From positions 352,001 to 416,000 of the forward strand of contig CAWKFG010000004.1 of the NCBI GenBank assembly GCA_963848965.1: a stretch of 64,000 nt of DNA, read 5' to 3'. This stretch comes from an uncultured bacterium. Lineage in GTDB: Bacteria; Babelota; Babeliae; Babelales; Babelaceae. The position numbers are program-made. Numbering within the stretch: position 1 is the stretch's first letter; every line of letters begins with the position of its first letter. Positions 33,001-39,000 of the stretch are shown here, piece by piece.

Positions 33001-36000
33001 ATATTCTTATCTTTGTAGTATACTAGGATAAAGATAGAAAAATTCATTGTAGTAATAAGGCATATGAAATATTTACCTACTGATGTAAGCACCTTTAGTC
33101 TTATGATTGAAGGCAATTATCTTTACATAGATAAAACAGAGTATATTTATAACCTTTTTAAAGAAGGTGAATCTCGATACTATTTCTTATCTCGACCACG
33201 TCGATTTGGCAAAACGCTGCTTATATCAACGTTAAAGGAACTGTTCTCTGGCAATAAAGAGCTATTTAAAGATCTTTGGATTTATAAAAGTACCTATAGA
33301 TGGGATACCTATCCTGTTATTCACCTTGATTTTTCGACCATGGATTATGCAACTGTTGAAGAACTGAAACTAAGTTTATCATGGACTTTATCACATATTG
33401 CACAAAGCTATGATATTGATATCTCACAAGCACCCACACCAAGCACTAAACTTACCTTATTAGTAGAACAGCTTTCAAAGAAAAATAAAGTAGTAATACT
33501 TATCGATGAATACGATAAGCCTTTATTAGACAATTTAAAAGATTATGAAAAAGCAGAAGCTCAAAGAGATGCTCTCAAATCCTTTTATGGCACTTTAAAA
33601 GGTCTTGATATTTACTTACGAGCTCTTTTCATAACTGGGGTAAGCAAATTTGCAAAAACATCAATATTCTCGGGGATCAACAATCTTAATGATATCAGCC
33701 TTAAACCAGAAGCAGCACAATTATTAGGATATACCGCACATGAAATAAACTATTATTTTAAAGAATACATACTACAATTTACTCGAGATCAACAGAGAAC
33801 TCCTGAAGCAACCATTCACGAGATGCAGAGATGGTATAATGGTTACAGGTTTTCGGAAAATCCTATAAAAGTCTATAACCCTTTTTCAGTACTTTATTAC
33901 TTAAAAGATCATAAGCTAGCAAACTATTGGTTTGAATCTGGAACCCCTTCATTTTTAATTAAACTCTTACAAAAACAATACCAATCACTTGAAGATCTTG
34001 CCTTAGTCGAACTGAGTTCTGATTCTTTAGGAACATTTACTATTGATAACATACCTCTTATTCCTCTTCTCTTTCAAGCAGGTTATCTTACTATTGCTGA
34101 TTATAATTCAGTAACAAGAAAATTTACGCTTAATTATCCTAATCTAGAGGTTGAGGAATCGTTCAAAAAATATCTTGTAGCAGCTCTTGCCTATAGCAAT
34201 CCAGTAACGGTTGATACTATGCTGTCTCGACTGCTTAGTGCTTTACATGCAGAAGATTTCAACACTTTTTGTACTTACTTGCAAAGCCTCTTTGCTCATA
34301 TTCCCTATACACTTCATATACCACGAGAAAGCTATTATCACTCACTATTTCAATTTCTTATGAGTCTTCTTTCTTTAGAAGCAAGTTCGGAAATTTTAAC
34401 CGATAAAGGCAGAATTGACTCAGTTATTTCTACCAAAACTACTATCTATATCTTTAAATTTAAATACAATACCGATCCAGAAAAAGCCCTTAAGCAGATT
34501 CAAGAACAAAAATATTATGAACCATATATAATTAAAGGAAAGCCTATTATAGCCGTTGGGCTTGCTTTTCATGATGAAAAAGAGAAGCTCATTATTAGAT
34601 GGCAATCAAAAGAGTTAGCATTCACGCAATAAATTCTTTATAAGGTACAGCAAGAATTTGATCTCTACGCTCTAAAATATCTATGAAAAATTCTGGCGTA
34701 CAAGAATCCAATCCTTCTTTGAGAGCATCTTCATAAATCATACTTAGTACTTCATAAGTAAGTTGTGTATACTTCTCAAGAGTGGATTTTGAATAAATAT
34801 TTGTAAAGTTAATACGTGGCTTTAGAGTATTATCAGGATTTTCGGAAGAGCTCTTATAAAATTGAATCCATAAAGCATTATGCCACAAAACGATAGGCAA
34901 CTGCGAAATACCTAGATTGTTCCAACCTTGGACAAATCTTATAGGAACGGTATACTCTTTTCCTTTAAGTCGCTTACTTGAGCATTCCAGCGTATCTAAA
35001 GATACCATAGGTGACTCTGATAATTTTCTTTTACGGGATTCACTTTCTGATACTAACTCACCTCTCTTTATCTCTATACACACGGGAAGTGTTATCCAAA
35101 ACTCTTCTTCAAAAGGGAATGTTCCTTTATAAGAAAAGTGAGGCTCAAAACCAATCTGACGAATAAAAGAATGGTACCCATACCGTGTCTTACTCCAGGT
35201 TATTATTGCAGCGTTATCAATAAGCGCCAGCTTTGCTCTCCCCTTATGGTAAGCAATAATTTGGTTTCCTGCATGGTTATCCCATTGACCAAAAATGAAA
35301 TAAAATAAGTACATATCACTTTTTTCTTTTTCAGAAAGCAGAGTAAATGCAGTTTTGTTGTGCCGTGATTTTAAAAGGTCAAAAGGTGATTCTACAAAAA
35401 ATTGAAGGCTTCCTCGCTTTCCTTGATACTCTCTTAACACCGTAGGCGGTACTAAGCGCTGCCCTAGCCAGATGCTCGCTTTATATGCAGCAATCTCACC
35501 ATAAGAAAATCGTAACTCATCTTCAGGCTTAAAAACAGCTTTAAGACCGTTTGCAAGTGTAGCAAGATAGACCTTTTTAGTGTAATGTGCTTTTTTATTT
35601 TGTTCGCTTAAATATTCTCTCATATCTTTAAGCGCTACAATAGGCTGAGTTCTCAGTTGTTCTTCAATGCTCTTAAGGTCTAAAGTATCGTCCCATAACG
35701 GTTGTACTCTATCAGGAGCTTCCATACCATATGCCAAAGAGAGAGTACCTAGTATACTGATAAAAGAGAGACATCTTATCATAGCTTATACCTTTCCTTT
35801 ACACAGTATTACAGGTGACTATCAAAAACAGCTTTAAAGCTATACAGCTCTGTATAAACCAGGATACTACTGTTATAAAAACAAGCAAGAGTTATGGTAC
35901 AAGCACTTTGTGCGATGCTGCGAGTATTTGGTTTTTTCGCTCTAAAATATCATTAAAAAAAGCTGGTGTACAATCAGCAACATTATGCGTTAATGCATCT

Positions 36001-39000
36001 TCAAATATCCAATGCAAAACATCAAGAGAAAGCTCTTTATACCGCTTGAGTGTCTGTTTTGAATATACAAATGGATACAAGAGCAACGAAGAATCTTTTT
36101 TATTCTTTGCTACTATTTTATTCCACACTATATGTCTCTTTCTCTTTACAAGAGAAGAGCTATCGATGATAGCAGCATGCCCTTTGCCATTTTTATCAAT
36201 TGCTATAAGCTTGTTACCCCAATGAGCAGAGATTCTTCCTCTAAAAACAAAGTAAAAAAGAGCCATATCACTCTTAGTTTTAGCAGAAAGCAACTTTAAA
36301 GCACGCTCTCTATCTTCTTGCTTAAAGAGGTCAAAAGGAGTCTCTACAAAAAATTGTAAACTTCCTCGTTGTCCTTTATAGTCCCGCACTACTGTTGGAG
36401 GCACTAACTGTTGCCCCAGCCACAGACTCGCTCTATATGCAGCGGTTTCTCCGTAGGGCGATTGTTCTTTACTCTCTGGCTTAAAAACAGCCTTAAGACC
36501 ATTTTCGAGTGTCACAAGATACACAGCATGCTGAAAAGAATCCTGTTTCTGATTCTCTTTCAAATATGCTCTCATCTCTTTTGACGAAACTATAGGCTGC
36601 GTTTTTAATTGCCTTTCAATTTCATTTATGTTTAAAGCACTATCCCAAACAGGTTGCTTTGTATAGTTTTCACCATTGACGTAAAACATAGAAAAAGCAA
36701 ATATACTACAGAAAAGCCAAGAACTATAAGAGAGCATACTATTTCCTTTCGTAATAAAGATGTGTTCTTAAGGTACAAGTTTTTTATGTGGAACCGCAAG
36801 CATGTAGTCTCTTCCTTTTAGAAGAGCAGCAAAAAATTCTGGTGTACAAGAGGGAACTTTGTCTTTAAGCGCATCAATAAAAATTTCTTGAAGCACTTCA
36901 AGAGAAAGCGCTTTATAACGTTTAAGAGTAGCTTTTGAGTAAACAGAAGGCCATTCACTCTCTAGCTTTCTTGTTTGCAGCACAGGTGGCATCTGCCTTA
37001 AATGCTGTGTCATAATAGAAGCATTATCAATCAATGCAAGATGCGCTTTACCATCTTTGCCAAGAGCTACAAGTTGGTTACCAGAGTGCGATCCTTTATG
37101 TTTAAAAATACAACCAAAAAGCTGTGCATCACTTAACACTTTAGGCGATAACATACGAAAAGCCTTTTTTTCGTGTTTTGGATTTACAAGATCAAAGGGA
37201 GATTCTACAAAAAATTGGAGACTGCCTTTTATACCTTTATGCTCTCTTAATACTACAGGAGGAACTAAGCGTTGCCCAAGCCAGAGACTTGCCCTATAGG
37301 CAGCAAGCTCTCCATAGTGATAATTTTTTGGGCCACCTGGCTTAAACACTGCTTTTAAGCCATTTGCAAGCAGAGCAACATATACCTTATTGTGAAACTT
37401 TGCTTCTTTTCCTTGTTTTTTTAAATATTTACTCATGCTCGTAAGCCTAGCAATAGGCTGTGATGCTAAGTGCTTTTCTATCACAGCAAAATCAAGCGTA
37501 TTATCCCAGAGAGGCTGTTTTACGTAATGCTTCTGATCACTTGTAGCATATACAGAAGCACACATAAGAAAATATAAGTAAAAGTGTTGTCTTATAAGCA
37601 TAGTACTTCTTTTCAACATGAATTAACCTTTCAATGAGTAGTCTTCTTATTTAAGAAGAGCAAGTAATTGGTCTCTTCGTTTTAGTATGCTACTAAAGAA
37701 ATGAGCACTACAATAACGAGTATGGCTCTTTATTGCCTCTTCAAACATCCAATGTAAAGCTTTAAGAGAAAGCTTTTTGTATCGCTTTAAGCTTTCAGGT
37801 GAATGGATATGAACTTGAGAAATAGAGATACCCTTATGCACTCTACTTAGCACATCGCAGGAATTCCAGTCATATTGAACCCATAAGCTATTTTTCCACA
37901 TTACAACTGGCAAATGCGTTACATTGAGGGTATTCCAGTATAAAATATAATCGAGTGGAACAACATAGTGGGCTTCCTTATTAGTAAACTTTTTATAAGC
38001 ACATAGTTCATTAAGACATAATCCAACATTTTTACGATGTTGCTGCAATAAGACAGTACCATTCTTCTCATCTTGCCCAAGGGCAATAGGAAGAGAGATG
38101 TAAAAGACTTCATTAAACGGAAAAGGTTCATTATATAAATCATCATCACCGTATGCAATTTCCTGAATAAAAGGAGGTTCGCCACTACGCACTCGTGCTG
38201 GTACAATAAAAGCAGCATTATCAATAAGCGCTAAATATGCTTTTCCATCTTTATCAAGAGATACAAGTTGATTTCCTGGATGCGGATCCCATTGCCCAAA
38301 AATATAATAAAAAATTTGCCTATCACTCTTAGTCTGCTCTGATAGAAGGCTGAAAGCATGATCTCTTTCGCTATCTTTTAAAAGATCAAAAGGAGATTCT
38401 ACAAAGAACTGGAGACTTCCTCTCATTTTTTTATGCGTTTTAAGCACAGTGGGGGGAACAAGACGCAATCGAAGCCATTGACTTGCTCTATAAGCTGCTA
38501 CTTCCCCATAAGCTTTAAAAAGGCGTCCAGCTTCTGGCTTAAAAACTGCTTTTAAGCCATTTGCAAGTGTAGCAACATATACTTTAGTTTTATAAAAAAC
38601 GACTCTTCCTTTTTCTTTTAAATAATCTTTCATCTCTTTTAATTCAACAATAGGCTCTTTACGTAATTGTTCTTCAATACCAGCAAAATCAAGGTGATCA
38701 TCCCAGACTGGCTGCTTCGTATGTGTAACGCCTTTAATACCATAAGTGCAAAGAGTAAAAATCATTAACAAAAGGTAGAGAGATCTATAAAAACACATAC
38801 TTTCCTCTTTTATACTAACATACGTTGAATATTGCATAATCTTGCTTTTTTATTCTATGCTTTTTCAGACAATCTTTACAAGAGAAAAAAGGAGATTCTA
38901 TGAAGAGAAAACTTTCGCTTACTCTCTTTGTGGGCATTCAGCTCTTCTTTGTCTTCTTCTACATTTATGATCAAAGTCAAAAAATTCAATTATCTTATCA

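Follow-up and report, generated by a model that had tools for sequence, protein, structure and literature searches.

Four adjacent genes, g01036 to g01039, in the 64,000-nucleotide stretch of DNA analysed here (the window) form a lineage-specific array in the order long-short-short-long. On balance we lean towards reading their products as Sec-exported, host-directed kinases of a large uncharacterised atypical family, in which the two short copies are non-catalytic. The initial annotation had described four active kinases. The full catalytic set was found in the two long copies only, which look active from their residue pattern, and the short copies are probably better read as non-catalytic paralogues because the catalytic Asp and an insert after the DFG-like motif are missing. 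The source organism is an energy-parasitic, Dependentiae-type intracellular bacterium.

Gene array and paralogy

The four genes are intact minus-strand open reading frames between positions 34622 and 38837 (Table 1), in agreement with the tandem arrangement described earlier. The frame of g01039 stays open to a first ATG at 38837, which would give a protein of 396 aa (37647-38837). The ATG at 38798 (383 aa), used in the initial annotation, seems the better start since a Shine-Dalgarno-like run, AAAGAGGAAAG, lies just upstream of it and the start residue of the orthologue P0004 matches it. At least the first three genes of the array are probably co-transcribed.

Table 1. Positions in the window of the four kinase-like genes and of the insert in g01036
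Feature	Positions	Strand	Remarks
g01036, long form, 386 aa	34622..35782	-	Intact ORF
g01037, short form, 281 aa	35892..36737	-	Intact ORF; leader and insert-less kinase core
g01038, short form, 283 aa	36768..37619	-	Intact ORF; leader and insert-less kinase core
g01039, long form, 383 aa	37647..38798	-	Intact ORF; start from Shine-Dalgarno-like run and orthologue
g01036 insert, residues 197-325	34808..35194	-	Gap in alignment; profile coverage of short forms

The paralogy of the four proteins, also claimed before, is clear from BLASTP comparisons, with identities of 44.7% between the long copies, 47.3% between the short copies and 59% between long and short copies over the N-terminal 170 residues (E-values 1e-68 to 1e-110). 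The short genes have lost about 100-130 residues together with the catalytic Asp, and broken copies of the family occur in other genomes (L025, L031, L032, and G110 with 7 stops), as would be expected if the short genes were decaying, functionless remnants of duplicated kinases. We regard decay as very unlikely. Both short reading frames are intact, and their 1:1 orthologues in a related genome have the same length and are 75% and 71% identical (the latter for g01038 and P0006), no lower than the 72% and 69% found for the long copies. The short-form fold is predicted with confidence (pLDDT 88.3), the short architecture reappears in two distinct clades and accounts for 20 of the 239 relatives inspected, and the conserved Lys, Glu, Asn and DFG-like Asp are retained. 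Because of the confident fold and a conservation between genomes equal to that of the long forms, the short forms are retained genes.

Catalytic residues and the post-DFG insert

Residues are numbered on the 386-aa g01036, which gives values one higher than those used before. The long copies keep every residue of the kinase catalytic set: K85, E96, D168-x4-N173 and D189 in g01036, and K87, E99, D171-x4-N176 and D193 in g01039. In g01037, K86, E97, N175 and D192 are kept and Ser170 occupies the position of the catalytic Asp (GRISAHWGN); g01038 keeps K93, E104, N181 and D198 and has Gly176 at this position (KHKGSHSGN). The pattern of a competent kinase, consisting of the beta3 Lys, the alphaC Glu, Asp-x4-Asn and the DFG-equivalent Asp, is thus complete in the long pair and incomplete in the short pair, so that the catalytic set previously assigned to all four proteins holds for g01036 and g01039 only. 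Its conservation in the family was borne out by an 80-sequence alignment in which K85, E96 and D189 are invariant and D168, N173 and N190 occur in at least 90% of the sequences. Across 195 long forms the set is kept at 97-100% (Lys in 195, Glu in 192, D168 in 190, N173 in 193 and D189 in 193). Loss of the catalytic Asp affects 6 of the 20 short forms compared with 5 of the 195 long forms.

Atypical kinase folds have repeatedly proved to perform other chemistry, as set out in the pseudokinase text of a FAM20 review (PMC7948968). The fold could accordingly carry out AMPylation or glutamylation, reactions known from SelO and SidJ, or all four proteins could be binding modules, and the catalytic base is certainly absent in two of the four copies. 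The canonical phosphotransfer set in the 195 long forms and the absence of SelO and SidJ among the top 50 structural matches leave such uses with little probability.

In the long copies, Lys85 and Glu96 would position the phosphates, Asn173 and Asp189 would hold the metal, and Asp168 would act as catalytic base. The short copies, which keep the nucleotide-binding residues without the base and the insert, would most likely be non-catalytic ATP-binding paralogues that serve as regulators, scaffolds or decoys.

After the IDN (DFG-like) motif the short genes lack about 100 alignment columns, corresponding to about 130 residues of g01036, and the family profile, when run on the short forms, gives matches confined to positions 6-197 and 270-341. 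Since the short and long models align near-equally to PI4KII-alpha (215 and 223 residues, respectively), the insert, a beta-rich and family-specific element, lies outside the shared kinase core. Aromatic residues make up 17 of its 129 positions, and G202, F206, F222, P223, F224 and W305 are each at least 90% conserved in 80 long forms. Its place at the activation-loop position makes this aromatic, beta-rich element a likely candidate for substrate or membrane recognition.

Fold and relationship to known kinases

As stated before, the proteins belong to no Pfam family; the only rows, at E 0.13 and 0.017, fall far short of the cut-offs. The absence of an NCBIfam assignment holds at the curated cut-off, but all four proteins match TIGR03843, the uncharacterised SCO1664 family, below it (E 4e-6 to 9e-4, 18.6-26.3 bits, cut-off 172.4). 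Of 80 relatives, 75 match the same model at E<=0.01 (best 3.9e-7), in the region from alphaC to the DFG motif. Among named bacterial families, this one alone is consistently similar in sequence. Judged by bit scores so far below the cut-off, it is a distant relative and the window proteins are not members.

A search of PDB sequences with the family profile retrieved FAM20A (6.4e-5), FAM20C (2.7e-3) and FAM20B (0.25), the only solved family detected in this way. The alignments to FAM20A and FAM20C span both the alphaC-beta4 region and the catalytic loop. PI4KII-alpha was not detected in this search at E<=10. The long-form AlphaFold model (g01036) has a pLDDT of 89.8 and a pTM of 0.88, and the short-form model has the same structural neighbours. 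Foldseek returned PI4KII-alpha (4hnd, 2.6e-5) and Golgi casein kinase (4kqa, 2.9e-5), with TM-scores of 0.26-0.37. The kinase core thus has the fold of both FAM20 and PI4KII, and membership of the Hanks-type Ser/Thr kinases was supported neither by the Pfam Pkinase model nor by the closest fold neighbours. Profile and Foldseek results hence confirm the kinase-like fold and its nearest solved relatives as first proposed, and the earlier scores were reproduced in kind (5e-6 for FAM20A and a pLDDT of 90.3). The models place the family in a structural branch with type II PI 4-kinase, FAM20, Helicobacter pylori CtkA and Physarum actin-fragmin kinase.

Phosphoinositide kinases are known as effectors of intracellular bacteria (PMC7298712), and the long copies could be PI4KII-like enzymes that alter the identity of host membranes, in the manner of LepB, LegA5, OpiA, MavQ and Risk1 from other intracellular bacteria. 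We consider this possible but rather unlikely. The catalytic loop has Asn at the D+5 position, where FAM20A and FAM20C have Glu in the HMMER alignment, no named bacterial family is closer in sequence than TIGR03843, and PI3K/PI4K-domain proteins top the viral fold matches. A neighbouring Atlas cluster carries PF00454 (PI3_PI4_kinase) in 38% of its members. The aromatic insert also fits such a role, as PI4KII-alpha binds membranes with the help of aromatic residues located within its activation loop and immediately behind it (PMC3974213). On the other hand, PF00454 matches none of the four proteins, nothing in the source genome at E<=10 and only one of 80 relatives at E<=0.01 (E 0.0023), and the profile finds FAM20 rather than PI4KII-alpha. 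The CCPCC palmitoylation insertion contributes to the PI pocket of PI4KII-alpha, an enzyme whose three insertions are described as unique to it (PMC3974213). It is absent from all four proteins, and in g01036 the distance from K85 to E96 is just 11 residues. Unlike PI4KII, the family has an insert of its own after the DFG-like motif. To our knowledge, PI4KII has no signal peptide. The nearest structural neighbours of PI4KII-alpha are themselves protein kinases (PMC3974213).

Similarity of the family to the bacterial phosphoinositide kinase effectors is structurally much weaker than to PI4KII or FAM20; Risk1, LepB, LegA5 and OpiA were compared by description rather than by sequence. Legionella MavQ, LepB and LegA5, Francisella OpiA and Rickettsia Risk1 are delivered by T4SS or T6SS (PMC7298712), whereas the proteins described here have Sec-type leaders and VirB4 was not found in the source genome (88.7% complete).

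The family resembles FAM20, all members of which share an N-terminal signal, in carrying an export signal ahead of the kinase domain, here a putative one in the form of a hydrophobic leader, and the array resembles FAM20A and FAM20C in the coexistence of active and catalytically impaired paralogues (PMC7948968). In FAM20A, however, inactivation lies in a Glu-to-Gln change at a metal-binding position (PMC7948968), whereas the short forms lost the catalytic Asp and the insert. FAM20 also has conserved disulfides (PMC7948968); in the 80-row alignment of this family cysteine stays below 30% in every column, and no conserved disulfide is therefore expected. The Fam20C model PF06702 matched neither the four proteins at E<=10 nor any of 80 relatives at E<=0.01, and a genome-wide scan at E<=10 gave no hit; in the control genomes, too, this model matched nothing. 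The FAM20 members are eukaryotic (FAM20C being the Golgi casein kinase, FAM20A a pseudokinase and FAM20B a xylosylkinase), whereas this family is bacterial. The likeness of the long and short pair to FAM20A and FAM20C is one of genes rather than of an observed complex.

Both FAM20 and type II PI4-kinases are considered to have arisen in eukaryotes. In the FAM20 review consulted, a reference title is the only place where bacteria appear (PMC7948968). The array might be a bacterial counterpart of FAM20A/FAM20C, in which insert-less, base-less paralogues regulate exported long kinases and the effector family spreads horizontally among unrelated protist endosymbionts. Among prokaryotic proteins, the family might also be the nearest relative of PI4KII and of the secretory-pathway kinases of eukaryotes, a relationship that would inform the origin of these eukaryotic enzymes. 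We judge this reading quite unlikely. The family counts thousands of representatives, has an insert of its own behind the DFG-like motif and repeatedly includes a short form with impaired catalysis; once characterised, it would extend the atypical kinome by a new branch. It would also supply a group of candidate effectors for manipulation of the host in Dependentiae, Rickettsiales, Holosporales and Chlamydiota, lineages that are mostly uncultured and whose effector repertoires are largely uncharted. Because the proteins are small and single-domain, with high-confidence models and clear catalytic residues, the family is directly testable.

Export, distribution and site of action

All four proteins have a hydrophobic N-terminal leader, and the signal peptides of the initial annotation are to this extent present, their putative status as such being read from that hydrophobicity. 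The leader of g01036 comprises about 19 residues with possible cleavage between AYG and ME; in g01038 cleavage is possible between VYA and TS. The conserved domain starts directly after the leader at a QPxWD motif, and the AlphaFold model sets a helix of residues 2-18 apart from the domain. A hydrophobic 11-mer immediately precedes the domain in 165 of 217 members with a complete N-terminus, by a rule of low specificity that 28 of 41 control ORFs in the window satisfy as well. In the Dependentiae isolate Chromulinavorax, signal peptides are predicted on 44% of coding sequences, including putative effectors such as ankyrin proteins (PMC6561590). A Sec leader alone reaches only the periplasm, and the onward route is a guess. 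The source genome contains three secretin genes as well as TLC ATP/ADP translocases.

With a wider profile the family comprises 3441, 933 and 285 proteins at E<=1e-3, 1e-10 and 1e-30, respectively, so the large family without a name reported earlier (753 and 123 at E<=1e-3 and 1e-30) has grown. Its distribution is patchy. It is carried by 18 of 201 sampled genomes of the source phylum (Dependentiae) and occurs in Rickettsiales, Holosporaceae, Chlamydiota and other metagenome-assembled genomes (MAGs), with a concentration in bacteria inhabiting protists. Some MAG labels of relatives (Cytophagales, Bdellovibrionales, Opitutales) do not all fit an endosymbiotic lifestyle. The locus scan is a biased sample because a single peptide pattern was used. 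No neighbour gene was conserved across phyla at the family loci examined, and the Rickettsiaceae loci lie in a different, shared gene context.

Dependentiae, Rickettsiales, Chlamydiota and Holosporaceae are lineages known for nucleotide parasitism. This coincidence would suit proteins that stay in the periplasm or cell envelope, use passing host ATP and phosphorylate the bacterium's own envelope proteins, glycans or lipids. The Sec-type leader by itself predicts periplasmic delivery, host ATP would have to cross the periplasm because the genome has TLC translocases, and the locus lies between bamA and ftsL-ftsI in the source genome, L002 and L003. An envelope role nevertheless appears unlikely to us. 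The patchiness indicates an accessory function, which fits a core envelope role poorly, the gene context is not kept across phyla, conserved cysteines are absent, and a eukaryotic cytosol is the only setting in which fusions to Skp1 and F-box domains would be meaningful.

The patchy distribution shared with Rickettsiales, Holosporaceae and Chlamydiota, the lack of a conserved neighbour or disulfide and these fusions are the reasons for favouring host-directed kinases. After export through Sec the proteins would be released to the host, possibly via secretin-based machinery or vesicles. There the long copies would use host ATP and phosphorylate a host target, somewhat more likely a protein than a phosphoinositide. 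Points that weigh against this reading are the reach of the Sec leader, the low specificity of the hydrophobicity rule, the silence of PF00454 and PF06702, the small number of fusions, the MAG labels and the bias of the locus scan.

Skp1 and F-box domains are parts of eukaryotic SCF ubiquitin ligases. Such fusions were seen in 2 of 15 longer relatives scanned, both on metagenome contigs: P0196 has a marginal F-box match (22.3 bits), and in P0182 a hydrophobic leader is followed by a Skp1_POZ domain (36.3 bits).

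Long and short paralogues in a tandem array

The four kinase-like genes g01036 to g01039 lie head to tail and encode, in the direction of transcription, a long, a short, a short and a long protein (table). For g01039 the start at 38798 given in the initial annotation is preferred, since a Shine-Dalgarno-like run, AAAGAGGAAAG, is located just ahead of it and the orthologous protein P0004 starts at the matching residue. Gaps of 27, 30 and 109 bases separate the genes, so at least the first three genes are probably co-transcribed. A scan of 34300-39200 gave 12 sites resembling promoters and 2 resembling terminators, compared to 15.3 and 3.2 in shuffled sequence, and was set aside because these counts were not above the shuffled level. 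With a G+C content of 0.35-0.37 the array does not differ from the remaining window (0.33-0.40). These four are the only family copies in the genome (1.73 Mb in 5 contigs, 88.7% complete). A candidate fifth copy at G000:C4:786530-786685 (E 0.004) was rejected as a chance match, since it falls within an ankyrin-repeat protein of 1485 aa that has no Pfam kinase signal.

Features of the array and its flanks, with the catalytic residues of the four kinase-like proteins
Feature	Position	Strand	Description
BamA	28405-30906		POTRA and Omp85 domains
Rce1-like CAAX protease	30918-31649		
Small protein	31779-32171	-	130 aa, hydrophobic leader
Ankyrin-repeat protein	32352-32930	-	192 aa, N-terminal hydrophobic segment
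AAA-ATPase_like/PDDEXK_9 gene	33064-34632	+	
g01036	34622-35782	-	386 aa, long form; K85, E96, D168-x4-N173, D189
g01037	35892-36737	-	281 aa, short form; Ser170 at catalytic Asp position (GRISAHWGN)
g01038	36768-37619	-	283 aa, short form; Gly176 at catalytic Asp position (KHKGSHSGN)
g01039	37647-38837	-	396 aa from first ATG, 383 aa from preferred start 38798; long form; K87, E99, D171-x4-N176, D193
FtsL-like and FtsI genes	38900-40796		

In BLASTP comparisons the two long proteins are 44.7% and the two short proteins 47.3% identical, and between long and short forms identity is 59% across the domain's first 170 residues. Immediately behind the DFG-like IDN motif the short proteins have a gap of about 100 alignment columns, where the long forms carry an insert (g01036 residues 197-325). 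The initial annotation had all four proteins as predicted active kinases. This stands for g01036 and g01039, which carry the full catalytic set, and fails for g01037 and g01038, where the catalytic Asp is replaced; both short proteins retain the Lys, Glu, Asn and DFG-like Asp. Since the short copies are as conserved towards their 1:1 orthologues (75% and 71% identity) as the long copies (72% and 69%), we read the short forms as maintained genes and not as debris. Prediction of a complex of g01036 (27-386) and g01037 (26-281) with alignments gave no answer (score 0.00) in both runs, which were made without controls and are weighed neither way.

Family size, conservation and loss of the insert

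Of 3141 candidates from a word-indexed search, 169 were relatives at E<=1e-3. A profile built from 80 full-length members matched 3441 of 1.84 billion representative proteins at E<=1e-3; the number falls to 933 at 1e-10 and to 285 at 1e-30. In the 80-row alignment K85, E96, P112, G124, S125, G165, I188, D189 and F222 are invariant (g01036 numbering), and D168, N173, N190, G202, F206, P223, F224, W305 and R372 are present in at least 90% of the rows. Full-length long forms make up 195 of the 239 relatives examined and nearly always keep the catalytic residues (K in 195, E in 192, D168 in 190, N173 in 193 and D189 in 193). The short architecture recurs in 20 of the 239, with D168 kept in 14 and lost in 6.

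A FastTree phylogeny of the shared core was computed for 215 rows after exclusion of 24 incomplete ones. The four window proteins fall in a clade of 13 tips (support 1.00), together with their 1:1 orthologues, all four encoded on one related contig, and with five more short forms. Ten further short forms group with four long forms in a separate clade of 14 tips (support 0.99). As short forms occur in two separate clades, the insert was lost at least twice.

Fold and relationship to known kinases

The structure models of the long form (pLDDT 89.8, pTM 0.88) and the short form (pLDDT 88.3, pTM 0.84) were compared to known structures. Foldseek matched the long form to PI4KII-alpha (4hnd, 2.6e-5), Golgi casein kinase (4kqa, 2.9e-5), FAM20A (5wrs, 5e-5) and CtkA (2e-3), with TM-scores of 0.26-0.37 across the matches. 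The short form gave the same structural ranking and aligned nearly as many residues, which places the insert outside the shared kinase core. According to the models it is a family-specific, beta-rich element at the position of the activation loop, and we attribute the low TM-scores to it. The matches in a viral structure library (TM 0.2-0.38) were all to generic PI3K/PI4K-domain proteins or kinases.

The initial observation that none of the four proteins has a Pfam family was borne out by a Pfam search, and among 80 relatives a single PI3_PI4_kinase match occurred (E 0.0023). Searches of the whole genome at E<=10 with the PF00454 and PF06702 models gave nothing, the latter being equally silent in every control genome. 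When the family profile was run against PDB sequences, FAM20A (6.4e-5), FAM20C (2.7e-3 and 0.011) and FAM20B (0.25) were matched over the alphaC-to-beta4 stretch and the catalytic loop, and PI4KII was not found at E<=10. With a short-form profile FAM20A alone was left (0.0066). TIGR03843, the NCBIfam model of the uncharacterized SCO1664 family, gave sub-threshold matches for all four proteins and for 75 of 80 relatives (best 3.9e-7), the four window proteins scoring 18.6-26.3 bits where the cut-off is 172.4. The neighbours in the ESM Atlas are clusters without a name, and in one of these 38% of the members have PF00454. By sequence the nearest kin are the FAM20 and SCO1664 families, and in the predicted structures PI4KII and FAM20 are tied.

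The family belongs to none of these three groups. Conserved disulfides are a feature of FAM20 proteins, as stated in PMC7948968, whereas no alignment column here reaches 30% Cys in the 80 rows and the family therefore has no conserved disulfide. The residue five positions after the catalytic Asp is Asn here and Glu in FAM20A and FAM20C (HMMER alignment). In PI4KII-alpha a palmitoylation insertion helps to form the phosphatidylinositol pocket (PMC3974213). This insertion is absent here, since the CCPCC motif was not found in the four proteins and K85 and E96 are spaced by just 11 residues.

Full-text literature searches (FAM20, PI4K, SCO1664/TIGR03843, CtkA, actin-fragmin kinase, Dependentiae, effectors) gave no description of the family. 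In a 2026 preprint FAM20B comes up only as something that myxobacteria may have contributed, and in a FAM20 review bacteria appear solely in a reference title. We rate the family as new at the family level inside a known superfamily and not as categorically new; it is of interest for work on atypical kinases and on endosymbiont effectors.

Distribution of the family

Of 201 sampled genomes of the same phylum, 18 have the family; among these are 6 of the 27 from the same family-level group and all 5 from one genus. Full-length copies in tandem also occur in other genomes of the phylum (three copies at G162:C17:14799-17770 and two at G137:C1:214284-216357), showing that local amplification of the family recurs. 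Short-type matches occur in genomes G048 and G137.

A locus scan, which is a biased sample of one genome per species found with a single peptide pattern and with MAG labels that may be wrong, yielded 33 loci: Dependentiae/Babeliaceae (5), 'uncultured bacterium' (3, including L002, which is syntenic with the window), Rickettsiales, Rickettsiaceae, Rickettsia or Candidatus Megaera (7), Alphaproteobacteria (7), Holosporaceae (2), Gammaproteobacteria (3), Verrucomicrobia/Opitutales (2), and Pseudomonadota, Chlamydiota, Bdellovibrionales and Cytophagales (1 each). Counted within 6 kb, the family gene is single in 28 loci and present twice in 2. In the remaining 3, from two Rickettsia/Candidatus Megaera MAGs and one Opitutales MAG, the gene is broken into 2-4 ORF pieces (L031 3780-4518, L032 5905-6981, L025 2827-3844), which could reflect pseudogenization or assembly frameshifts. 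All-against-all BLAST of the ORFs of the 33 loci and the window found no neighbour gene common to several phyla; synteny exists at the lineage level only.

In L002 and in L003, which is labelled as a Candidatus Dependentiae MAG, the syntenic genes are 60-65% (BamA) and 65-69% (FtsI) identical to those of the window. Their bamA-ftsI slot contains one family gene, next to bamA, with little or no space for accessory genes. The corresponding bamA-ftsL/ftsI slot of the window contains the four kinase genes and an accessory block at 30918-34632, and the 3' ends of the AAA-ATPase_like/PDDEXK_9 gene and g01036 overlap by 11 bases.

Export and possible site of action

All four proteins have a hydrophobic N-terminal stretch that ends a few residues ahead of a conserved QPxWD motif, and in the g01036 model residues 2-18 form a helix apart from the domain. 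A crude rule for hydrophobic leaders was positive for 165 of 217 relatives with complete N-termini, but 28 of the 41 ORFs that served as controls from the window also passed it; the result is therefore consistent with export and adds no further evidence. The high background is in keeping with a Dependentiae origin, since in Chromulinavorax signal peptides are predicted in 44% of the CDS, including putative effectors such as ankyrin proteins (PMC6561590).

Fusions were sought in 15 longer relatives. In protein P0182 a hydrophobic leader precedes Skp1_POZ (36.3 bits, cut-off 21.9), which is followed by the kinase; in P0196 (1243 aa) an F-box (22.3 bits, cut-off 20.5) follows the kinase; and in P0200 a cytidylyltransferase-like domain is located between leader and kinase. 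The Skp1_POZ and F-box fusions are the strongest hint that the family may act in the eukaryotic cytosol. We lean, with modest confidence, towards a mechanism in which the four proteins would use Sec for export and then be released to the host, where the long copies would phosphorylate a host target with host ATP, with the insert contributing recognition of the substrate or membrane. The short copies would bind nucleotide without catalysis and may serve as regulators, scaffolds or decoys. A periplasmic function of the proteins using host ATP seems improbable to us.

For the proposed host-directed kinases we somewhat favour a protein over a lipid as the substrate, because of the sequence tie to FAM20, the fusions to SCF domains and the lack of the PI4KII lipid-pocket insertion. 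That the long copies are lipid kinases is unlikely, yet it retains some weight because PI4KII-alpha is the top structural match and phosphoinositide-kinase effectors are well known in intracellular bacteria (PMC7298712).

Genomic setting

TLC ATP/ADP translocases are encoded at three places in the genome, in the window at 54636-55970 (minus strand, 96 bits, above the cut-off) and twice on contig C1. There are three secretin genes, and VirB4 was not found in the 88.7% complete genome. Together these features fit an energy-parasitic intracellular Dependentiae bacterium.

Eukaryote-like genes occur near the three-secretin cluster, at L034 (G000:C4:780000-792000) and at G000:C4:767163-774663. They encode the 1485-aa ankyrin-repeat protein, a glycosyltransferase of 558 aa that has a DXD sugar-binding region and a sub-threshold TcdA_TcdB-domain match, and a 407-aa protein with a C-terminal MYND zinc finger. 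Within the window, two adjacent plus-strand ORFs at 40854-41826 (167 and 155 aa) have hydrophobic N-termini and no Pfam match and look alike by eye; they may stem from a further local duplication, in this case of a gene for an exported or membrane protein.
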